From an uncultured Anaerofilum sp. (GTDB lineage: Bacteria > Bacillota > Clostridia > Oscillospirales > Ruminococcaceae), in NCBI GenBank assembly GCA_944385935.1, contig CALWZC010000004.1, positions 75,426-139,425 of the forward strand: a stretch of DNA of 64,000 nucleotides, given 5' to 3'. Positions 22,986-35,253 of the stretch are shown here, in pieces. The notes below the pieces were generated by a model. It saw nothing but the letters and a program-made list of their open reading frames with translations, was not told where the DNA came from and did not search any database. The position numbers and the translations under genes are program-made. Within the stretch, counting starts at the first letter, position 1, and every line of letters begins with the position of its first letter.

Positions 22986-24527
22986 ATGTCACAGAGTGTA
23001 TTAGTAGTGGATTTTGGTGGCCAATACAATCAGCTGATTGCAAGGCGTGTGCGTGAGTGCAATGTATACAGTGAAATTGTACCGTATACCAAAGCACTAG
23101 AGGCAGCCAAAGAGAAAAAGCCCATGGGTATTATCTTCACCGGTGGCCCCAATAGCGTGTATGAGGACAATGCACCTACCATCAACACTGAGATTTTTGA
23201 GCTGGGAATTCCTGTTTTGGGCATTTGCTATGGCTCTCAGTTGATGATGCATTTACTGGGTGGTCATGTATGCAAGGCTCCTGAACGGGAATATGGAAAA
23301 ACAGAGGTAATGGTAGATACTTCTAGCAAGATGTTCCAAGGAGTAAGCCCCACTACTATCTGTTGGATGAGCCATAACGACTACATCGAAACCGCTGCGC
23401 CGGGCTTTGCAATTTCTGCCCATACTGCCAACTGTCCCGTGGCAGCAGTAGAAATGCCCGAAAAGAATTTGTATGCAGTACAGTTCCATCCAGAGGTATT
23501 GCATACACAAGAAGGCAAAAAGATGTTGGCCAACTTTGTGTATAATGTATGTGGCTGTGCCGGCGATTGGAAGATGGATTCTTTTGTGGAGCAGTCTGTA
23601 GCAACCCTGCGAGAGAAAATCGGCAGTGGCAAGGTGCTTTGTGCTCTTTCTGGTGGTGTAGATTCCTCTGTAGCTGCTGTTATGTTGGCAAAAGCTGTTG
23701 GCAAACAGTTAACTTGTGTGTTTGTAGACCACGGTTTGTTGCGTAAAAATGAGAGTGAAGAAGTAGAGGCAGTGTTTGGGCCAAACGGGCCTTATGACCT
23801 GAACTTTATCCGTGTGGATGCTCGCCAGCGGTTCTATTCCAAGTTGAAGGGCGTAGAAGACCCTGAAACCAAACGCAAGATTATTGGCGAAGAGTTTATC
23901 CGTGTGTTTGAAGAAGAAGCCAAAAAGATTGGTACAGTAGACTTTTTGGTTCAAGGAACCATCTATCCCGATGTTGTAGAAAGTGGTTTTGGTGGAGAAT
24001 CTACTGTAATTAAAAGTCATCATAATGTAGGCGGTCTGCCAGATTATGTAGACTTCAAGGAGATTGTAGAGCCTTTGCGTGACCTGTTCAAGGACGAAGT
24101 TCGTCAGGCAGGCCGTGAAATGGGAATCCCAGAATATCTGGTAAGCCGTCAGCCTTTCCCCGGCCCCGGTTTGGCAATCCGTATCATTGGAGAGGTAACA
24201 GAGGAAAAAATTAAGATGGTGCAAGATGCAGATGCTATCTGGCGTGAGGAAATTGCTGCCAGCGGCGAGGATAAGCATTTAGGTCAGTATTTTGCAGCAC
24301 TTACCAATATGCGTAGCGTAGGTGTTATGGGTGATGAGCGCACCTATGATTATGCCATTGCTTTGCGTGCAGTAACCACCACTGATTTTATGACCGCAGA
24401 GCCAGCCTACCTACCTTGGGATTTGATTGCAAAAGTTACCAGTCGTATTGTAAACGAAGTGCCCCATATTAACCGTGTCATGTACGATTGCACAGGAAAA
24501 CCTCCCGCAACCATCGAATTTGAATAA
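22986..24527 (+). CDS. guaA: GMP synthase (glutamine-hydrolysing)
   Basis: Start [14 protein letters not shown] after AGGAGG; GATase1 domain, PP-loop SGGVDSSV, C-terminal dimerization ending TIEFE. Confidence 0.95.
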
Positions 24528-24536
24528 ATAATACAA

Positions 24537-24577
24537 CCCCGGAAATCCCGTATTTATGCGGGTTTCCGGGGTTTTTA
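24537..24577 (+). terminator. rho-independent terminator after guaA
   Basis: CCCCGGAAATCCCG...CGGGTTTCCGGGG stem then TTTTT. Confidence 0.85.
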
Positions 24578-24641
24578 TGCCTTGTTTGAAAGACATATTT
24601 CTCAAAGAAATATGTGTAAATAAAGAAAAGAGGATAGTGGT

Positions 24642-27299
24642 ATGGCAAAAAAGAACGTTGTAGAGGAAGCAAAAAAATCTGCTTATCAAACAGTAGAACA
24701 ACTGTGTCAACAACTAGAAATCACACCAAATGGTTTAAAAGAATCGCAAATAGAAACAATGCGACAAGGATATGGAGCAAATGTTTTTTACCAGAAAAAA
24801 AGAATGCGAGTTGTAAACGCTCTGGCAAAAGCATTTATCACTCCTTTTCATGGTATTCTGTTTTTATTGGCTGTAATATCTGTGACAACAGATGTGTTTG
24901 TAGGCCAGAATTTTGCGAGAAACACCAGTACGGCGTTTATTATTTTTGCAATGATTATCATTAGTGGTACAATCCGCTTGGTGCAAGAGTTACGGGCAAA
25001 GTATGCCGCAGACCAACTAGACAAGCTATTACATGGGAATGTTTTAGTAAAGCGAGATAACATCTGGAAAGAAATTCCCGCAGAAAAACTGGTTGTAGGG
25101 GATTTGGTTTCCTTTGCCGCAGGGGATAGAATCCCCGCAGATATACGCTTGACCCAGACAACAGACCTATTTATTTCTCAAGCTGCCATTACAGGGGAAA
25201 GTGCCATATTAGAAAAAAATAGTGATGTGGTGCCTCCTTTAGACAAAGGAGCTTTAACGGAAAAAAGCAATCTTGCCTTTACAGCCACAGTGGTGATAAG
25301 TGGAAAAGGGCAAGGCATTGTAGTAGCTGTGGGAGAAAATACCCTATATGGTAGTGCTGCAAAAACACAAGGAGCAAGAAAAAATTCCTTTCAAAAAGGA
25401 GCAAACTCCATTGCTTGGGTTATGCTGCGATTTATGGCTGTTTTAATACCTATTGTATTTGTTGTAATTGGTATTACAGGAGGAAAATGGGCAGAATCTC
25501 TTGCCTTTGCCCTTTCGGTGTCGGTGGTGCTAATTCCCGAAATGCTCCCTATGGTCATTACTGCCTGCCTCGACAAAGGTAGCCTTTCTATGAGCAAAAA
25601 GCAAACCATTGTAAAAAATATCAATGCCATGCAGAGCTTTGGCAGTATGGATGTACTTTGCATGGATAAGACGGGAACCTTGACCAATGAAAGCATTTTG
25701 CTGGAGTACTATATGGATGTGTTGGGCAACGAAAAGCCCAAGGTGCTGGATTTTGCCTATCTAAACAGTAGTTATCATTCTGGTGTGCGCAATCCCATTG
25801 ATAACGCCATTCTTGCTTGTCATACAATGCCCAATAAACAACAGCATTTTTGCAACCTAACAAAGCAGTATCACAAAATGGATGAAATCCCTTTTGATTA
25901 TACCCGAAAAATAGCAAGTGTTCTTGTACAAGATAATACAGGTAGCTGTGAAATGATTGTAAAAGGGGATATTGAGGAGGTAGTTCGACGCTGTACGTCC
26001 ATTGAGTATCAGGGGCAAGTATTGCCAATGGAAAACCAAAGCATGGAAAATGTATGGTCTGTGGTGGAAGAAATGCTGCAAGATGGAATGAAAGTAATTG
26101 CAGTAGCCAGCAAGCCTATCTGTGGTCAAACCATTTGCCAAAAGGATGAACAAGAATTGACCTTGATGGGGTACATTGCATTTTTTGATGCACCAAAAGC
26201 CACAGCCAAAGAATCTATAAAAGCATTGCAAAAGTTGCAGGTTGCCCCCAAAATACTTACAGGAGATAAAGCACAGGTTGCAATGTCCATCTGTCGGCGT
26301 GTGGGAATTTCTCCACAGGGACTGCTAACAGGAGCACAACTGGAAGAATTAACAGAACAACAGCTCGTTGACGCCGTGCAGAGAGTGAATGTATTTGCCG
26401 AGCTTACCCCCAGCCAAAAGGTGAGCTTGGTTGCCGCTTTGCAAAAAAACAATCACACGGTGGGATTTTTGGGGGATGGAATCAATGATATTCCTGCTAT
26501 GAATCAAGCTGATGTGGGAATTTCGGTGGATACCGCAGTGGATGCCGCAAAAGAGGCGGCAGATGTGGTGTTGCTGCAAAAGGATTTGAATGTTTTGGAA
26601 CAGGGAATTTTGGAGGGCCGCAGGATTTTTACCAACATGCTAAAGTACATAAAAATTACTGCCAGTTCCAATTTTGGAAACATTTTGTCCATTGTTTGTG
26701 CCAGTGCCTTTTTGCCTTTTTTGCCCATGACATCCATTCAGATTCTCTTACTCAACCTGTTGTATGACACTCTATGTATTGTTTTACCTTGGGATGCAGT
26801 AGATGATGAGGCTATTGCTTGCCCAAAGGAATGGAATGGAAAAACACTGGGACGTTTTATGAGATGGTTTGGCCCAATTAGCTCTTTGTTTGATATTGGA
26901 ACATTTGTGTTTTTATACTATATTATTTGCCCTATGTTGTGTGGGGGACAGCTATACCACACCATTTCAGACAGAGCATTGCAAATGCAATACATTGCTG
27001 TTTTTCAAACAGGGTGGTTTTTGGAATCCATGTGGACACAGATTTTGATTTTACACTTTTTGCGAACACCTAAAATTCCTTTTATCCAAAGTAGACCTTC
27101 TATTCCTGTTGTCTGTATCACCTTTGTTGGGCTTCTTGTCTTGACAGCACTTCCCTTTGTGGCAACAGGGGCATTGTTTGGGTTTACAAAACTTCCTTTT
27201 TGGTATTTTGGATTTTTGGCAGTGACAGCATTGTGTTATATGATATTAAGTACATTATGTAAATCCCGCTATCAAAAAAAATATCAGGAGCTTATCTAA
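24642..27299 (+). CDS. mgtA: magnesium-translocating P-type ATPase (MgtA-like)
   Basis: 885 aa; phosphorylation site CMDKTGTLT; TM4 IPEMLPMV (Mg-ATPase-type PEML); GDGINDIPA; 10 TM helices. Confidence 0.8.
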   Translation: MAKKNVVEEAKKSAYQTVEQLCQQLEITPNGLKESQIETMRQGYGANVFYQKKRMRVVNALAKAFITPFHGILFLLAVISVTTDVFVGQNFARNTSTAFIIFAMIIISGTIRLVQELRAKYAADQLDKLLHGNVLVKRDNIWKEIPAEKLVVGDLVSFAAGDRIPADIRLTQTTDLFISQAAITGESAILEKNSDVVPPLDKGALTEKSNLAFTATVVISGKGQGIVVAVGENTLYGSAAKTQGARKNSFQKGANSIAWVMLRFMAVLIPIVFVVIGITGGKWAESLAFALSVSVVLIPEMLPMVITACLDKGSLSMSKKQTIVKNINAMQSFGSMDVLCMDKTGTLTNESILLEYYMDVLGNEKPKVLDFAYLNSSYHSGVRNPIDNAILACHTMPNKQQHFCNLTKQYHKMDEIPFDYTRKIASVLVQDNTGSCEMIVKGDIEEVVRRCTSIEYQGQVLPMENQSMENVWSVVEEMLQDGMKVIAVASKPICGQTICQKDEQELTLMGYIAFFDAPKATAKESIKALQKLQVAPKILTGDKAQVAMSICRRVGISPQGLLTGAQLEELTEQQLVDAVQRVNVFAELTPSQKVSLVAALQKNNHTVGFLGDGINDIPAMNQADVGISVDTAVDAAKEAADVVLLQKDLNVLEQGILEGRRIFTNMLKYIKITASSNFGNILSIVCASAFLPFLPMTSIQILLLNLLYDTLCIVLPWDAVDDEAIACPKEWNGKTLGRFMRWFGPISSLFDIGTFVFLYYIICPMLCGGQLYHTISDRALQMQYIAVFQTGWFLESMWTQILILHFLRTPKIPFIQSRPSIPVVCITFVGLLVLTALPFVATGALFGFTKLPFWYFGFLAVTALCYMILSTLCKSRYQKKYQELI

Positions 27300-27315: not shown

Positions 27316-28014
27316 TTGAAACAGAAAATCAGCTTTGTTCCTTTGGATGCAGACTTGCAACTTTGGCTATTGGAAAAATTGTTAAAGGAGCCACCCCAAA
27401 GCCCCTACACAGCAGAGTTTTTGCAAGGGGTTCGCAATCTAATTTGTGGACAAACGAGCTCGCTACTTCTAGGAAGTCCTGAACAAAAGGGAGTAGTGGA
27501 ACAGGGATTGTCCGAAAGCATTGTAGTGGGAGAGTTGGAAATATCCCCTAAAAATAGAAAGGTCATCCTACAAGGGAAAGAGATAAGCCTCACCCCAAAA
27601 GAATTTGATATTTTGTATTTTTTGGTGGAAAATAGGGGAGGAGTGTTATTCAACGACTTGCCTGCCCATTTTAGTGGAGCAGAGTTGGCAGCGGTACAAG
27701 CAAAATATATCGGGCTATTTCAAGCCGGCTGGTTTGTAGAATCCATGTGGAGCCAAACATTGGTGATTCACATGATTCGTACCCCAAAATTGCCTTTCTT
27801 GCAAAGCCGAGCTTCTGCACCTGTCACACTGCTTACCATGGCGGGAATTGTGGTGCTTACTATCATTCCTTTCACTGGTTTTGGTGCTATGCTAGGATTT
27901 ACTTCTTTGCCCATTGTTTATTTTGCTTATCTCATTCCTTGCATTGTGCTGTATATGGCTTTGGCAACCAGCTTGAAAAAAGCCTACGTTCGCCACTATG
28001 GAGAATTGCTATAA
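27316..28014 (+). CDS. mosaic protein: OmpR-type winged-helix fragment fused to a diverged copy of the MgtA C-terminal two TM helices
   Basis: TTG start after AGGGGGTG; middle segment ISLTPKEFDILYFLVENRGGVL matches OmpR/PhoB trans_reg_C core; last ~105 aa about 50% identical to MgtA residues 780-885. Confidence 0.5.
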   Translation: MKQKISFVPLDADLQLWLLEKLLKEPPQSPYTAEFLQGVRNLICGQTSSLLLGSPEQKGVVEQGLSESIVVGELEISPKNRKVILQGKEISLTPKEFDILYFLVENRGGVLFNDLPAHFSGAELAAVQAKYIGLFQAGWFVESMWSQTLVIHMIRTPKLPFLQSRASAPVTLLTMAGIVVLTIIPFTGFGAMLGFTSLPIVYFAYLIPCIVLYMALATSLKKAYVRHYGELL

Positions 28015-28028
28015 AGGGGGGTACCTGC

Positions 28029-28184
28029 ATGAATTGGAAAGCTGTATGGATGACCCTATTTCATACCACCAATTGGATGGGCATTGATGTAGGATTTTGG
28101 GTTGTATTCACTGCTGTGCTGCTGATTGTAGTGGCAATGAACCTTGTATTTTGGAGTATGAAGCCAAGACAATCGAAAAAATAA
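28029..28184 (+). CDS. 51-aa single-TM membrane peptide
   Basis: ATG 28029 after AGGGGGG; one hydrophobic helix IDVGFWVVFTAVLLIVVAMNLVFW then basic tail KPRQSKK; terminator follows. Confidence 0.4.
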   Translation: MNWKAVWMTLFHTTNWMGIDVGFWVVFTAVLLIVVAMNLVFWSMKPRQSKK

Positions 28185-28192
28185 AAAACGAA

Positions 28193-28239
28193 AAATCCTT
28201 CAAAGGTCTTATTTCAAAGGCCCTTGAAGGATTTTTTTG
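28193..28239 (+). terminator. rho-independent terminator
   Basis: TCCTTCAAAGG...CCCTTGAAGGA stem then TTTTTTTG. Confidence 0.75.
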
Positions 28240-28247
28240 TTTACCTG

Positions 28248-28288
28248 TTGACAAGACTGTGCTATCTGTATATACTGTATATATACAG
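28248..28288 (+). promoter_or_regulatory. promoter (-35 TTGACA, 17 nt, -10 TATACT) overlapped by palindromic operator TGTATATATACA for the GntR/YtrA-like operon
   Basis: TTGACA 28248-28253, TATACT 28271-28276, perfect 12-bp palindrome 28276-28287 with upstream half-site CTGTATATAC. Confidence 0.5.
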
Positions 28289-28300
28289 ATAAGAGGTGAT

Positions 28301-28681
28301 ATGGTGCATATCTTTATAGATAATAAAAGTGGTGCTCCCATCTATGACCAAATCTATACCCAGATTAAAAATCAAATTATTAGCGGAGAGCTGGAGGAAA
28401 ATCAGCCTTTGCCTTCTATTCGTAATTTGGCGAAGGATTTGCGGGTGAGTGTAATCACAACAAAGCGAGCCTATGATGAATTGGAACGGGAGGGATTTAT
28501 TTACACATTGCCAGCAAAGGGGTGCTTTATTGCTCCCAAAAATGTGGAGCTTTTAAAGGAAGAAACCTTGAAAAAAATAGAACAACATATACAAGAAATT
28601 ATGCAGTTGGGTGCAGTTTGCAACCTTACAAACGAAGAACTATTAGAAATGGTTCGAGTGAATTTGGAGGAATTACCATGA
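28301..28681 (+). CDS. GntR family (YtrA subfamily) transcriptional regulator
   Basis: 126 aa; HTH IRNLAKDLRVSVITTKRAYDELEREGFI; short C-terminal helices; AGAGGTGAT RBS. Confidence 0.8.
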   Translation: MVHIFIDNKSGAPIYDQIYTQIKNQIISGELEENQPLPSIRNLAKDLRVSVITTKRAYDELEREGFIYTLPAKGCFIAPKNVELLKEETLKKIEQHIQEIMQLGAVCNLTNEELLEMVRVNLEELP

Positions 28682-29520
28682 ATGCTTTGGAAATTACCAA
28701 CCTAACAAAGAAATACAAGGATTTTCAACTGGATAATCTCAATCTTACATTACCAAGTGGCTGCATTTTGGGGTTGATTGGGGAAAATGGTGCAGGCAAA
28801 AGCACAACCATCAAATTGATTTTAGATATGATAAAAAAGGACAGTGGAACCATCACAATTTTTGGCAAAGACAATCAAACAGATATACACCTTACCAAAC
28901 AGGATATTGGCGTAGTTTTGGATGATGTGGGCATTCCTGAACAGTTTACCCCAAAGCAAGTGGGAAAAATTATGGAACATACTTTTGCTAATTGGGACAA
29001 TGCCTTGTATGAAAGATACATCAATCAATTACAAATTCCAAAGGAAAAAATCTTTAAAGAGTTTTCTCGTGGTATGAAGATGAAGCTGGGCATTGCAGTG
29101 GCAATGGCACATCATCCCAAATTGTTGATTTTAGACGAGGCAACTTCTGGGCTAGACCCTGTGGTTCGAGATGAAGTAGTGGAGATGTTTGGGGAGTTTA
29201 CTCGTGATGAAAGCCATTCTGTGTTGATTTCCTCCCACATTGTTAGCGATTTGGAAAAAATTTGTGATTATATCGCCTTTTTACACAAGGGAAAATTGCT
29301 TTTGATGGAAGAAAAAGATATACTTCTGGAGCAATACGGAATTTTGCAGTGCACACAGGAGCAACTTGCTCAGTTGCCCCAGCAGGCAATCAAGGGGAAA
29401 AAGGTGCTTCCCTATGGAGTGCAAGCACTGGTGCAAAAAGAATTTATTCCAGATGGAATGGATGTTCTTCCAGTAACCATAGAAGAACTGTTTATTTTTA
29501 TGGTAAAGGAGTGTGCTTGA
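28678..29520 (+). CDS. ABC transporter ATP-binding protein
   Basis: ATGA start/stop overlap with GntR gene; Walker A GENGAGKST, signature, LILDEATSGLD. Confidence 0.9.
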   Translation: MNALEITNLTKKYKDFQLDNLNLTLPSGCILGLIGENGAGKSTTIKLILDMIKKDSGTITIFGKDNQTDIHLTKQDIGVVLDDVGIPEQFTPKQVGKIMEHTFANWDNALYERYINQLQIPKEKIFKEFSRGMKMKLGIAVAMAHHPKLLILDEATSGLDPVVRDEVVEMFGEFTRDESHSVLISSHIVSDLEKICDYIAFLHKGKLLLMEEKDILLEQYGILQCTQEQLAQLPQQAIKGKKVLPYGVQALVQKEFIPDGMDVLPVTIEELFIFMVKECA

Positions 29521-29521
29521 T

Positions 29522-30145
29522 ATGAAAGGGCTATTGCTAAAAGATTTTTACATGACAATCAAATATGGTAAAACTTTGTTTCTGGTGGTCTTGGTTTTTT
29601 GGGCAATTTCTTGTTTTGATGATGGGGGAAGTTTTTTCCTGGTATACCCTATGATTTTAGCCGGAGTGCTTCCAATGTCCCTGATTTCTTTGGATGAACG
29701 GGAAAAATGGGTACAATACAGCGGAACATTGCCGTATACCAGAGCACAGTTAGTATCTTCAAAATATATCATAGGGCTTTTGTTGGGCGTTGGAGCATTT
29801 ATTCTTTCTATGGCGACTACTGCTGGCCGTATGTGGATGAATGGATATTTTTCTTTGTTAGAGTTTGGAACAATAGCCTCTCTTCTTCTTGTGTTGGGGT
29901 TGTTGCCGCCCACCATTTTACTGCCCTTTGTTTTCAAATTTGGAGCAGAAAAAGGCAGAATCATGTTTTATGTGGTGATTGGCTTGGCAACTGCTATTGG
30001 TACTTTATTGGCAGGGTTTGGATTTCAAATGCAGATGCAGACCAATGAATTTGCAATACTATTTGTAATGTGCACTGTGGCAGTATTGTTATATCTTGGC
30101 TCTTGGTGCCTTTCCGTTGCTTTTTATAAAAAACGAGAATTATAA
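29522..30145 (+). CDS. ABC-2 family transporter membrane protein
   Basis: 6 TM helices, follows the ATPase. Confidence 0.6.
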   Translation: MKGLLLKDFYMTIKYGKTLFLVVLVFWAISCFDDGGSFFLVYPMILAGVLPMSLISLDEREKWVQYSGTLPYTRAQLVSSKYIIGLLLGVGAFILSMATTAGRMWMNGYFSLLEFGTIASLLLVLGLLPPTILLPFVFKFGAEKGRIMFYVVIGLATAIGTLLAGFGFQMQMQTNEFAILFVMCTVAVLLYLGSWCLSVAFYKKREL

Positions 30146-30309
30146 TGTACAAAAAGGTTTTGTTTTTTCAAAAAGAGAACAGAACCTTTTTCTTTTGGTG
30201 TATTTTTCTGACAAAATGCCCTCTTTTTGCTAAAGTTCTGTTCACAAGTGAACAGAAATATGGTAGAATTACAAAAACATCTATCCATGACAAAGGAGGG
30301 AAAGCATCA

Positions 30310-31506
30310 ATGGACTTGACACAAGAAAAAGTGGAAAATTTTGTGTGCGAGAATTGCGGCGGAACATTAAAATGGAATATAGCAAAAAAGCAATTGGAGT
30401 GTGGGTCTTGTCACACTCCCTATACTCTGCAACAGGAATCTGTTATACAAGAGCATCCCTTTGAGGAATATCATCAGCGTGAGCAGCGAACAGAAGCATT
30501 TCCTGATGAAACAGTGGTAAAGTGTAACTCTTGTGGTGCAGAAGTAGTGTTTGATAGAGATGACACGGCAAAGGTCTGCCCTATGTGTGGGGCAACTCAG
30601 ATTTTGCCACAAAAGCAGGTGCAAGGTGTTCCACCAGATGGAGTTTTGCCCTTTGAAATAGATAAACAGGCAGCCCAGCAAAAATTTAAAAAATGGGTAA
30701 GAAGTCGTTGGTTTGCCCCCAATAAGCTAAAAACCGTTTACCAAGAGGGAAAACTGAATGGGGTGTATATTCCTTTCTGGACCTTTGACACACAAGCAAA
30801 TGGCGAGTACCATGGTAGAGGTGGCAAGGAGCATGTTCGAGAGGACAAAGACGGCAACAGACGTGTGGAAGTTCGTTGGATACCTGTAAGCGGGCATGTG
30901 GGAAAATTTTTTGATGATATCCAAATTTCTGCCTCCATGGGACAGGTGAATGAGGTTGTAGATAAGGTTTTACCCTATTCTACACAAACAAAGCTACATG
31001 GATATTCTCCTATGTATCTTTCGGGATTTTCGGCAGAACGATATGCCATTCCAGCAACACAGGCCGCCGAAACCATGAAAGAGAAAGTTCGGCGAGAGTT
31101 GAAACGGATGGCAGAGGAGGATATTCGGTCAAGAGGGTTTGACCGAGCAGATGTACAACACTTGAAACTGGATTTAGAAGATACTACCTATAAGCAAGTG
31201 TTGTTACCTGCATGGTTTTCTTCCTATGCCTACGGAAAAAAGCAGTATATGTACATTATCAATGGTGAGACCGGCGAAGTAGGAGGACAGAGGCCTTATA
31301 GCATCCCCAAAATTGCAGCGGCTGTTGTGGCTGCACTTGCGTTGGTGGGGCTAATTGTTTGGGGCTCTTCCGAAAAAACAGAGGCAGCCGTTTTTGCCAC
31401 ACCAACCACAGAGGTGGTTTATCAGCAGGAACAACCTGCAAATACAATTTTGATGAAAGAAGGAAATGCAAATGGCTTGGTTTGGACAAGGAAAGGACAC
31501 AATTGA
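30310..31506 (+). CDS. double-zinc-ribbon protein with C-terminal TM anchor (YdjG-like)
   Basis: Start MDLTQ after AAGGAGGG; two CxxC...CxxC ribbons (CENCGG..CGSCH; CNSCGA..CPMCG); central conserved domain; TM helix IPKIAAAVVAALALVGLIVWG. Confidence 0.5.
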   Translation: MDLTQEKVENFVCENCGGTLKWNIAKKQLECGSCHTPYTLQQESVIQEHPFEEYHQREQRTEAFPDETVVKCNSCGAEVVFDRDDTAKVCPMCGATQILPQKQVQGVPPDGVLPFEIDKQAAQQKFKKWVRSRWFAPNKLKTVYQEGKLNGVYIPFWTFDTQANGEYHGRGGKEHVREDKDGNRRVEVRWIPVSGHVGKFFDDIQISASMGQVNEVVDKVLPYSTQTKLHGYSPMYLSGFSAERYAIPATQAAETMKEKVRRELKRMAEEDIRSRGFDRADVQHLKLDLEDTTYKQVLLPAWFSSYAYGKKQYMYIINGETGEVGGQRPYSIPKIAAAVVAALALVGLIVWGSSEKTEAAVFATPTTEVVYQQEQPANTILMKEGNANGLVWTRKGHN

Positions 31507-32530
31507 GTGGGAAGAATTTCGAGATGATGTGCTATTTTACAAATGGCCCGGAAAGGAGATTAAAAAGGGTGCTCATCTAATTTTGCGCCCCGGACAAAAG
31601 GCAATCTTCTATGCAGATGGAGAAGTGGGAGCAGTATTTGAACGAGAGGGCAACTTTGATATTGCGTCGGAAATTGTACCCTTCTTTTCTACTCTAAAGG
31701 GATGGTTTAGCCTGCGAGGGGACAGCGGTATGCGGGCAGAGGTCTATTTTGTAAATGCAAAACAGCTTTTGCTCAACTGGGGAACCCGTCAGCGTGTAAT
31801 GATTCCTACCCCACAGGTTCCCGCAGGAATTCCAGTAGGTTGCAATGGTAATCTGGTGGTTGCTTTCCGAGATTATCAGCGGTTTATTCAAACAGTAGCT
31901 GGAGTACGCAGTACATATAGCCTAGAGGATATTTCTGAGCGAATTATGGGAGAACTAAGCCCCATTCTTTCTGAGGCAATTCTAGGCAAACAACAAATGA
32001 TAGGTGTCAATGCTTTGACAGGCCTCCAGCAAAACAGTAGAACCATTAGCAAGTTTATCTGTGAGGAATTGGACAAAGAGCTTTCTGATTTTGGTTTAGG
32101 TGTACAGGATGTCAATATTTTGGCATTCAATTACCCACCAGAAGTAGAAGCAATGGCTGCCAAAGTTGCTGGGCAAGCATTTGTAGGGGATGTAGGACGA
32201 TATGCCACCATCAGCATGGCAGATAGCTTTTCCACACCCAATGCAGCAGGTTCTGCAGCGGCTGGTGGCATGGGCTTAGCAATGGGTATGCAGATGGCAG
32301 GGCAGATGATGGGTACAATGGCAGGACAACAAAACCAGCAACCCCAACAACCCGCACAAACCTGTACAGCCTGTGGAATGAGTATACCCCAAGGGGCTAA
32401 ATTCTGCCCGGGATGTGGTGCAGCTGTGACCGCCGCACCCCAACAAACAGAAGGAGACCGCTTCTGTCCCAATTGCCGCAAAATGGTTTCTGGTAATTTC
32501 TGCCCAGATTGTGGAACAAAAACAGTATAA
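31472..32530 (+). CDS. SPFH/Band-7-like (Band_7_1, YdjI-like) protein with C-terminal double zinc ribbon
   Basis: SPFH-like N-domain; Gly/Met/Gln-rich linker; C-terminal CTACG..CPGCG and CPNCR..CPDCG ribbons. Confidence 0.55.
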   Translation: MAWFGQGKDTIEWEEFRDDVLFYKWPGKEIKKGAHLILRPGQKAIFYADGEVGAVFEREGNFDIASEIVPFFSTLKGWFSLRGDSGMRAEVYFVNAKQLLLNWGTRQRVMIPTPQVPAGIPVGCNGNLVVAFRDYQRFIQTVAGVRSTYSLEDISERIMGELSPILSEAILGKQQMIGVNALTGLQQNSRTISKFICEELDKELSDFGLGVQDVNILAFNYPPEVEAMAAKVAGQAFVGDVGRYATISMADSFSTPNAAGSAAAGGMGLAMGMQMAGQMMGTMAGQQNQQPQQPAQTCTACGMSIPQGAKFCPGCGAAVTAAPQQTEGDRFCPNCRKMVSGNFCPDCGTKTV

Positions 32531-32593
32531 AACGTAACTGACCTTATAGTTTATTGAAATATCTTGTTCTATCTGGACTATTGTTGCTTTTTA

Positions 32594-32635
32594 GCCGCAA
32601 AAACATGGATTTTTTCATGTTTTGCGGCTTTTTTT
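32594..32635 (+). terminator. rho-independent terminator
   Basis: GCCGCAAAA...TTTTGCGGC stem then TTTTTTT. Confidence 0.85.
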
Positions 32636-32786
32636 AATTGAATTTTTAGGGGAAATAGCTTTTTTTATTTGCTTTTTGTTACTAAATAACAAGAAAAATG
32701 AAGCATTTTTGTAACAGAAAGTTATTTTCTGTAAAATATGCCTGATTTTATTTGCAGTATGGGAAAAAAGTTTGTTTTTTTAACAC

Positions 32787-32814
32787 TTGCTTTCCTGTTA
32801 AGATGTGATATAAT
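32787..32814 (+). promoter_or_regulatory. promoter of V-ATPase operon (-35 TTGCTT, 16 nt, extended -10 TGaTATAAT)
   Basis: TTGCTT 32787-32792; TG 32806-32807; TATAAT 32809-32814. Confidence 0.5.
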
Positions 32815-32882
32815 TCTAACAGGTAATCTTTATATTAGAAAAATCTAATGAATTGTTTTGTGTTAGAAAGGGGTGCCTAAAA

Positions 32883-33206
32883 ATGAGTAATGAAACAAAT
32901 GTTTTGTTACAGTCGGTGTTGGAAATGGACCGGCAAGAACGGCTACGCACACAGGAGGCGGAGGACTACCGTGGAAAGGCCATGGCTCAGCTGGAGGACA
33001 GCCGTAAGGACATTCACCAAAAACACCAGCAGTTGGCACAGCAAAAAATAGAAGCATATACCCAACAGGAAAATGAACGTATGCAACAAACCTTGCAGAC
33101 CTTACAACAAAAAAGTGCAGCAGTAAAGCAAACACTAAACGCCACAAAGTCTGCCAAACAGGAACAATGGGTAGAAACAATTTTTGAGCGTGTTTTGGAA
33201 AGGTGA
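32883..33206 (+). CDS. V/A-type ATPase small coiled-coil stalk subunit (G/H-like)
   Basis: 108 aa, entirely helical, charged and Q-rich; first gene of the V-ATPase operon. Confidence 0.55.
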   Translation: MSNETNVLLQSVLEMDRQERLRTQEAEDYRGKAMAQLEDSRKDIHQKHQQLAQQKIEAYTQQENERMQQTLQTLQQKSAAVKQTLNATKSAKQEQWVETIFERVLER

Positions 33207-34290: not shown

Positions 34291-35253
34291 GTGTTTTTTG
34301 ATGAAAAAATACAGTTGGTATGGGTGGATGGCTCGGTGCAGCTTTTGGAAAGTTTTGTACAGAAGTGTTGCATGGGGGATGAACGTGTACATCCTACCAC
34401 AGCCAGCGATAAAATGAGCGCAGGCATGGGCTTTGCCCCCCCAGAAATAGAAAATAATTGGGCGCAGCGCATTGAGGAAATGGAACAGATGGCCCAAGGG
34501 CTGGAACTTCCAGTGGTAGAGCCTGCTTTTGAGGATGCTCGTTCTCCCAAATTGGATGGATATTTGCAGCGAGTCAAAACCGCTTTGGATGAGAAACGGA
34601 ATATTCTGAAAGATTTGGAGGCACAACAGGTTTTGTGTCAGCAGGGCATAGAGCAATTTTCCCATTTTGAAGAACTGGATGTGGATTTGAGCAAAGCTCT
34701 TGAATGTGAATACATTTCCATCCGTTTTGGAAAACTGCCCAAAGCTGGGTTTGAAACTCTGTTGAGGGAACACGGCGATGACCCTTATGTGTTCTTTATT
34801 CGGTGCAGCGAAGACAAGGATTTTTACTGGGGAATGTATTTTGCTCCCCGTGAAAAACGAGCTTTGGTAGATGGTATCTTTGCAGGCTTGTACTTTGAAC
34901 GAGTACGGTTGCCCGGTGCAGGGGGAACCCCAAAAGAAATTGTAGAAAATCTTCAACACAATGTAGAGATTTTGCGCAGCCAAATTTTGCAAGCACAAGA
35001 CCAACTACAACAGGTATGGGGAGCAGAAAAATGGCGTTGCGCTGGTATTTATGCCTCTTTTTGCAGTTTGGCCCGTGTAGCAGAGTTGTGCAAGTGTGCT
35101 GCTGTGCGGGGAGAGCATTTCTTCTATGCAGTATGGGTGGAACAAACTGCTATGGAAGCCTTTGTATCTCGCTGCGAATCTGTGGGCAAACTGCATATGG
35201 CAATGGATATGACCCTTCCCAGAAAGAAATGGAAACAGCTCCATCAGCAATAA
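34291..35253 (+). CDS. stand-alone paralog of the soluble N-terminal domain of V-ATPase subunit I
   Basis: GTG start after AGGAGAGG; 320 aa, no TM; alignable along its length to residues 1-330 of the downstream subunit I (shared IQLVWVDG/MKLVRVDG, DDPYVFF, YWG.YF.P, LYFER). Confidence 0.6.
   Translation: MFFDEKIQLVWVDGSVQLLESFVQKCCMGDERVHPTTASDKMSAGMGFAPPEIENNWAQRIEEMEQMAQGLELPVVEPAFEDARSPKLDGYLQRVKTALDEKRNILKDLEAQQVLCQQGIEQFSHFEELDVDLSKALECEYISIRFGKLPKAGFETLLREHGDDPYVFFIRCSEDKDFYWGMYFAPREKRALVDGIFAGLYFERVRLPGAGGTPKEIVENLQHNVEILRSQILQAQDQLQQVWGAEKWRCAGIYASFCSLARVAELCKCAAVRGEHFFYAVWVEQTAMEAFVSRCESVGKLHMAMDMTLPRKKWKQLHQQ

Follow-up and report, generated by a model that had tools for sequence, protein, structure and literature searches.

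The window analysed here is a stretch of 64,000 nucleotides (nt) from an uncultured Anaerofilum sp. (contig CALWZC010000004.1, positions 75,426 to 139,425). Within this window a region of five genes, all co-directional on the + strand, was investigated. It comprises genes for a GntR regulator, an ATP-binding cassette (ABC) ATPase and a permease (module A), followed by homologues of ydjG and ydjI, also named samG and samI (module B). All genes and motifs described in an initial annotation of the region were found, with minor corrections: position 28248 is the -35 box, and the SPFH protein has 352 amino acids (aa). In that annotation the five genes were considered as one possible envelope-stress cluster. 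According to our results, two independent, separately transcribed and ordinary operons likely lie side by side, namely a predicted self-repressed ABC exporter and a ydjG-ydjI pair for a membrane anchor and an SPFH scaffold. The following features were assigned (TM, transmembrane segment; dG, folding free energy).

28191-28243, +, intrinsic terminator, left boundary of module A; ends the preceding unit (mgtA remnant and a 51-aa open reading frame, ORF)
28248-30200, +, module A, three-gene GntR-ABC operon: YtrA-subfamily GntR repressor, ABC ATPase, 6-TM permease
28248-28276, +, sigma-70-type promoter of module A, TTGACA-17-TATACT, 11/12 matches
28263-28291, no strand, putative operator, perfect inverted repeat TATCTGTATATA-N5-TATATACAGATA with 12-nt arms
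28301-28681, +, GntR regulator of the YtrA subfamily, 126 aa, predicted autorepressor
28678-29520, +, ABC ATPase, 280 aa, ABC_tran 1.8e-27 (Pfam)
29522-30145, +, ABC-2 type permease, 207 aa, ABC2_membrane_5 5.3e-33, full-length
30151-30200, +, probable, moderately strong terminator of module A, AT-rich hairpin and T-run, dG -17.9 kcal/mol, z -3.0
30236-32636, +, module B, bicistronic ydjG-ydjI (samG-samI) pair with its own promoter-like site and terminator
30241-30269, +, promoter-like site of module B, TTCACA-17-TAGAAT with TG extension
30310-31506, +, YdjG/SamG homologue, 398 aa
31472-32530, +, YdjI/SamI homologue, 352 aa, soluble SPFH protein
32593-32636, +, intrinsic terminator of module B, dG -21.5 kcal/mol, z -5.8, then U7

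Boundaries and neighbourhood of the two modules

Judged from its sequence signals, the region is read most simply as two operons. Their separateness is indicated by the flanking terminators of hairpin and T-run type, by a second promoter-like site and by an adjacency that is restricted to one species. The terminator on the left of module A has 20-nt arms with 90% complementarity, followed by a T-run (dG -26.1 kcal/mol, z -6.0). Module B starts behind the ABC-2 permease gene, and a strong ribosome-binding site precedes its ydjG-like gene; downstream of its terminator the V-ATPase operon begins at about 32883. The -35 box of the module B promoter-like site is overlapped by a perfect 10+10 palindrome, TCTGTTCAC-AA-GTGAACAGA (30236-30257), which is unique in the window and was absent upstream of ydjG homologues in 8/8 related loci. 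The outer bases of this palindrome, CTGT...ACAG, are similar to those in the candidate GntR operator of module A; the spacing differs. No match to the sigma-W motif TGAAAC-N16-CGTA was detected anywhere in the window. With Rfam, no family reached its gathering score in the whole 64 kb, and only noise at E<=1 was seen in 27900-33000.

The gene neighbourhood was compared in contigs with homologues of the 398-aa protein and in 80 metagenome loci, using iterated profiles; 84 loci outside the present species and Bacillus were counted. A GntR-ABC operon beside ydjG was found in 0/84 loci. In loci attributed to Pseudoflavonifractor, Candidatus Faecalibacterium intestinavium and Massiliimalia, the first gene of the same three-gene operon encodes a homologue of the GntR regulator with 78-82% identity. 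Unrelated genes follow there, and module B stands beside the operon in none of these three genera. Both modules adjoin only in the window and in contig L001, which is from the same species (98.6% nt identity). Because the adjacency occurs only in this species, modules A and B are not regarded as one envelope-stress cluster, and, as far as gene adjacency goes, the cluster proposed in the initial annotation is refuted.

The two modules could nevertheless form one co-induced island, e.g. by read-through from the GntR-controlled promoter, with exporter and SPFH scaffold acting together. They lie on the same strand and only 165 nt apart, both plausibly concern the membrane, and the terminator between them is weak (dG -17.9, z -3.0). 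The arrangement is also kept in the 98.6% identical contig L001. In contrast, none of the 84 other YdjG loci shows it, nor do the GntR-ABC operons in the three other genera. Module B has a promoter-like site and a strong ribosome-binding site of its own, and the palindromes at the two promoters differ in sequence and spacing. We consider a single island quite improbable.

The YdjG-like and YdjI-like proteins

The assignment of the downstream pair to YdjG and YdjI was confirmed with full-length alignments for both proteins. The 398-aa protein showed 28% identity to Bacillus YdjG (BLASTP, E 2e-44) with residues 8-352 aligned on 2-339, an alignment that takes in the TM as well as the central domain and both zinc ribbons. 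Four CxxC motifs (residues 13, 31, 72 and 90) make up two N-terminal zinc ribbons, which align with those of YdjG and whose eight cysteines are all invariant in 40 homologues. They are followed by a cytoplasmic alpha+beta domain (YpeB/PepSY/NTF2-like) and a single C-terminal TM (332-350). Two zinc ribbons as well as a central YpeB-related/NTF2-like domain with one TM are the features of YdjG/SamG proteins, and both were found. The C-terminal tail of 45 residues is unconserved and was modelled with a predicted local distance difference test score (pLDDT) below 50. The core of this family is without a Pfam model, and the source names of its members, among them 'transposase' and 'RNA-binding Zn-ribbon protein', are misleading; these proteins can now be labelled YdjG/SamG-like.

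A fusion of the YdjG and YdjH functions had been suggested for the 398-aa protein. This was ruled out, since the protein is collinear with YdjG alone and showed no similarity to YdjH, a TPM_phosphatase-domain protein (BLASTP, E 30). A separate ydjH is likewise absent: the ydjG-like and ydjI-like genes share 35 nt, which leaves no room for another gene between them. For these comparisons the Bacillus pspA-ydjGHI operon was retrieved via a published ydjG primer (PMC8581546).

The product of the second gene is 44% identical to Bacillus YdjI over its full length (BLASTP, E 3e-84). The Band_7_1 domain expected from the initial annotation was detected with HMMER (PF13421, 1.5e-31), together with DZR (5.7e-9). 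A Gly/Met/Gln-rich linker leads to a C-terminal double zinc ribbon with four CxxC motifs. The protein has no TM, and its maximum 19-residue hydropathy is 0.93. Band_7_1, the lack of a TM, the low-complexity linker and the C-terminal ribbons, by which YdjI/SamI proteins are recognised, are all present. From the start at 31472 the product is 100% identical to that of a 352-aa gene called on contig L001. The alternative start at 31466 was rejected, as an exact look-up found nothing and the L001 gene starts at 31472.

The position of a ydjI-like gene relative to ydjG was as follows in the 84 loci.

Directly adjacent, order G then I: 19/84 loci
Directly adjacent, order I then G: 46/84 loci
One gene away: 6/84 loci
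No YdjI-like gene found (several at contig ends): 13/84 loci

Thus, ydjG and ydjI are direct neighbours in 65/84 loci, in two gene orders. The genes between ydjI and ydjG in the six loci with one intervening gene are heterogeneous, and inspection of these ORFs revealed none that is TPM-like. A pspA gene lies immediately upstream of ydjG in 8/84 loci, all of them consistent with the order G then I; one is L040, with 49% identity to the protein of the window. A TPM gene was found in Bacillus loci only, with a shallow profile of four Bacillus sequences. These counts are evidence that YdjG and YdjI are the conserved core pair, to which PspA and TPM proteins are patchy additions. The pattern of a ydjG-ydjI core, a patchy pspA and a TPM/YdjH gene confined to Bacillus bears on how far the B. 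subtilis PspA-SamGHI model can be generalised.

Some further arrangements were observed. In L055 (2769-5032) two tandem YdjG paralogues follow ydjI, and in L065 a gene for a 225-aa zinc-ribbon protein lies between those for YdjI and YdjG. In L007 (9573-13204) and L008 (3111-6742) ydjG-ydjI is followed by an unknown 247-aa gene and by genes for a VWA-domain protein and TelA (toxic-anion resistance), which may represent a larger stress locus.

No pspA gene adjacent to module B had been noted before. This was extended to the whole 64-kb window, in which neither a pspA nor a TPM gene was detected by tblastn with the Bacillus proteins or by Pfam scans of unassigned ORFs. A 12-sequence PspA profile against all 282 ORFs of the window with at least 60 aa gave a best E of 0.022 and no PspA; the shallow TPM profile gave no match. 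None of the marks of the pspA-ydjGHI operon type, i.e. pspA upstream, a TPM-domain YdjH and a sigma-W promoter, was found at the locus. How the B. subtilis operon is regulated has been described (PMC8581546).

With respect to these results, module B might be a self-sufficient YdjG-YdjI membrane sensor or scaffold that works without PspA, with PspA and TPM proteins as lineage-specific add-ons. The empty 64 kb agree with this, as does the presence of an adjacent pspA in just 8/84 loci and of the TPM gene in Bacillus only. Moreover, some SamGHI phenotypes of B. subtilis are PspA-independent (bioRxiv 10.64898/2026.02.06.704340). On the other hand, L040 and seven other loci carry pspA directly upstream of ydjG, and therefore a link to PspA exists outside Bacillus. 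The negative search is limited to the 64-kb window and, for TPM, to the shallow profile. We regard a PspA-free module as a tentative possibility.

An anti-phage defence system or prophage cargo was also considered for module B. Some SPFH and zinc-ribbon proteins are found in phages and defence islands, and one report (PMC11153139) links PspA to the regulation of CBASS, an antiphage signalling system that relies on cyclic oligonucleotides. However, PADLOC and PHROGs gave just generic ABC or zinc-ribbon matches below relevance, and for this reason the reading was dropped. The window is core chromosome with mutS/mutL, miaA, sepF, divIVA, transketolase, guaA, mgtA, the V-ATPase operon, tig and clpPX, and no integrase or phage genes were found near module B. 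A role in defence is thus extremely unlikely.

The GntR-ABC operon and its candidate operator

The 126-aa GntR regulator, the ATGA overlap with the ABC ATPase and the ABC-2 permease were found as initially described. The regulator has an N-terminal GntR winged helix-turn-helix (PF00392, 5.4e-15, residues 15-77), and its length falls within the about 120-130 aa of the YtrA subfamily, which is characterised by a very short C-terminal domain. The closest solved structures, 4HAM, 3NEU, 4R1H and 3BY6, are of YtrA-type proteins with 125-134 aa. Among curated models the regulator scores best with PmtR (NCBIfam NF047563), and its residues 3-124 are collinear with positions 2-123 of the 125 in this model; the score of 114.3 bits lies under the cut-off of 200 for an equivalog. 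The start codon of the ATPase gene lies inside the stop of the regulator gene (ATGA, 28678-28681), and from this overlap the ATPase is predicted to be translationally coupled to the regulator. For the ATPase the top NCBIfam model is PmtA (NF047565) with 245.1 bits, again under the equivalog cut-off (350). The permease gene starts 1 nt past the ATPase stop and has the ribosome-binding site AAGGAG. Its product shows about six hydrophobic segments in the hydropathy profile and no match to the PmtB/D models. From these comparisons the regulator is assigned to the YtrA subfamily, yet module A is classified neither as a Pmt system nor as a copy of the seven-gene ytrGABCDEF operon. The reported match to the ytrA operon therefore holds for the subfamily of the regulator and fails for the architecture, with three genes here versus seven genes, two ATPases and YtrF.

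The promoter TTGACA-17-TATACT was the top-scoring site in the promoter scan, which overall found 13 sites versus 11.8 expected, i.e. chance level. A palindromic operator overlapping this promoter had also been proposed. The 12-bp palindrome TGTATATATACA at 28276-28287 was dropped as stand-alone operator evidence because of its frequency at chance level: 11 perfect 12-bp palindromes were seen in the window versus 18.3 in shuffles, so that they are not rarer than chance. For perfect 14-bp palindromes the numbers were 5 and 4.35. The inverted repeat at 28263-28291 includes the 14-bp palindrome CTGTATATATACAG (28275-28288) and a tandem of two CTGTATATA; repeats with such arms are expected 0.05 times per window. 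It overlaps the -10 box and the likely transcription start.

In an alignment of the upstream regions, TTGACA was invariant in the orthologous promoters of the Pseudoflavonifractor, Faecalibacterium intestinavium and Massiliimalia loci. A 23-bp core, CTGTATATACTGTrTATnnACAG, was invariant over four genera, whereas the flanks diverge. In the Pseudoflavonifractor version, TGTGTATACACA, the repeat is doubly substituted and the palindrome is still perfect. Since the inverted repeat is almost invariant in the orthologous operons of three other genera, it is a credible, putative auto-operator of a dimeric GntR repressor. As evidence for an operator, this comparative conservation outweighs the palindrome statistics. 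A similar situation was reported for PmtR, a YtrA-type repressor with overlapping genes and a footprint over the transcription start of pmtR-pmtABCD (PMC5080381). The motif CTGTATATACTGTATATATACAG provides a conserved candidate operator for this GntR-ABC operon, which is very commonly found among Oscillospiraceae-type bacteria of the gut.

ATPase and permease together probably form an exporter with two nucleotide-binding and two transmembrane domains (NBD2-TMD2). Module A contains no gene for a substrate-binding protein, and the nearest models of its ATPase are exporter or immunity types (PmtA, lantibiotic protection, DrrA). For these reasons inducible efflux of a membrane-active compound is the most likely function. 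In the literature on ABC2_membrane_5 (PF13346) nothing was found about substrates.

Module A might instead be a non-transport or cell-wall-modulating ABC system like YtrBCDEF, or an importer. The lack of a binding-protein gene and the models closest to the ATPase argue against this, as does the ABC-2 permease architecture, which is typical of exporters. Then again, sequence alone reveals no substrate, and the role of B. subtilis Ytr in antibiotic resistance is unclear in spite of its induction by cell-wall inhibitors (PMC12772383). Altogether, such a function appears unlikely.

In Pseudoflavonifractor (L094-L097, 755-4815, - strand) a further module is divergently adjacent to the orthologous GntR-ABC operon. 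It encodes an OmpR-type response regulator, a PAP2 phosphatase, an ABC ATPase with permease and a histidine kinase, and resembles bacitracin-type resistance loci.

The sequence on the left of module A was examined as well. Straight after an intact mgtA (24642-27299) lies a 232-aa chimeric ORF (27316-28014, +). A piece of an OmpR/VanR-type winged-helix output domain makes up its residues from about 60 to 115. Residues 126-232 correspond to the C-terminus of a second MgtA and match the final 107 aa of the intact one with 50% identity. The ORF resembles the scar of a deletion by which the 3' end of an mgtA paralogue became joined to a response-regulator gene. A 51-aa ORF (28030-28185, +) lies between this remnant and the terminator at 28191-28243. 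Its ribosome-binding site is good, its product has a single hydrophobic helix, and it may encode a small membrane protein of the Mg2+-transport locus. According to Rfam at gathering score, no M-box (Mg2+ riboswitch) is present upstream of mgtA (24300-24641). On the other side of the region, the ORF at 34291-35253 (+) encodes a stand-alone protein of 320 aa, which is a paralogue of just the N-terminal, cytoplasmic half of V-ATPase subunit I. The gene for the 643-aa subunit I itself lies immediately downstream, and the two products share 33% identity over residues 4-314 of the latter. The paralogue also occurs in contig L001 and has no Pfam match on record.

Proposed function and comparison with known systems

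For module A we propose that a YtrA-type GntR dimer would occupy the conserved inverted repeat, covering the -10 box and transcription start, and would shut off its own gene, the ABC ATPase and the 6-TM ABC-2 permease. By analogy to PmtR and Pmt, the repressor would come off in response to a membrane-active peptide or amphiphile, which would then be pumped out. In module B, the tail-anchored YdjG-like protein would expose its two zinc ribbons and the YpeB/NTF2-like domain to the cytoplasm and would itself tether or recruit the soluble SPFH protein to the membrane. It is proposed as the tether because only G and I are present and tightly linked, both here and in most loci. Contact of the two proteins is suggested by the conserved adjacency in 65/84 loci and by the data for B. 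subtilis. The SPFH protein would build a scaffold beneath the membrane to stabilise or monitor it; a PspA whose gene lies elsewhere in the genome may also dock there.

Several points weigh against this picture of two operons. Repression, export and YdjG-YdjI interaction are what we infer for this organism from sequence. In B. subtilis the two-hybrid contact of YdjI is YdjH rather than YdjG; because YdjH is absent here, the anchoring step may work differently. The permease is without a match to the PmtB/D models. The 80 metagenome loci are the best-scoring 80 of at least 591 matches, with near-duplicates kept. The middle terminator is AT-rich with z -3.0, and read-through into module B is possible. 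It is conceivable, with a low probability, that YdjG-YdjI is an old self-sufficient SPFH module without PspA and YdjH, which lies here behind the leaky terminator of a YtrA-controlled exporter. If this were true, one membrane-active inducer would switch on efflux and membrane scaffolding. We prefer two separate operons. Both modules belong to known kinds and do not overturn the current understanding; the value of the results is modest and lies in annotation and comparison.

For B. subtilis it was reported that soluble YdjI needs YdjG and YdjH for membrane foci and that PspA needs YdjI; two-hybrid contacts were found for YdjG-YdjH, YdjH-YdjI and YdjI-PspA (PMC8581546). According to a 2026 preprint, SamG-SamH is a membrane sensor restrained by SamI, with some phenotypes being PspA-independent (bioRxiv 10.64898/2026.02.06.704340). 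Like the pspA-ydjGHI (pspA-samGHI) operon, the locus described here has full-length ydjG and ydjI homologues in the same order. YdjG of B. subtilis likewise has two zinc ribbons, a YpeB/NTF2-like domain and a C-terminal TM, and YdjI has Band_7_1, a low-complexity linker and a zinc ribbon (PMC11237479). In contrast, here no pspA lies upstream and no TPM-domain ydjH between the genes, and a sigma-70-like site with a 22-bp palindrome is found instead of a sigma-W motif. The SPFH protein has two C-terminal ribbons versus one in B. subtilis YdjI, and the YdjG-like protein is extended by a tail of 45 aa.

Module A resembles pmtR-pmtABCD of S. aureus, which encodes an exporter of phenol-soluble modulins (PSMs). 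In both operons the first gene encodes a YtrA-subfamily repressor of about 125 aa and overlaps an ATPase gene, and the operator or candidate operator is located at or near the transcription start. The pmt operon contains two ATPases and two permeases, whereas one of each is found here, and the host is a gut Clostridium-type bacterium without known PSMs. The ytrGABCDEF operon of B. subtilis also places an ABC system under a YtrA-type GntR autorepressor and is linked to cell-envelope antibiotics. It has seven genes with two ATPases and the FtsX-like YtrF and is induced by cell-wall inhibitors, with an unclear role in resistance (PMC12772383). Compared by its published architecture, it comprises two ATPases (YtrB/E), YtrC/D, YtrF and the small YtrG, while module A has three genes with a single ATPase and permease. 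The likeness is thus at the level of the subfamily.

In SPFH-NfeD operons the SPFH scaffold is encoded next to its membrane partner. The partner in module B is a tail-anchored zinc-ribbon/NTF2-like protein, not an NfeD protein, and the SPFH protein is of the Band_7_1 type without a membrane anchor of its own. YuaF and YqiJ are mentioned in PMC11237479. Nevertheless, as in FloA/YqeZ, FloT/YuaF and QmcA/YbbJ, the gene for an SPFH scaffold stands beside that for a dedicated membrane partner.

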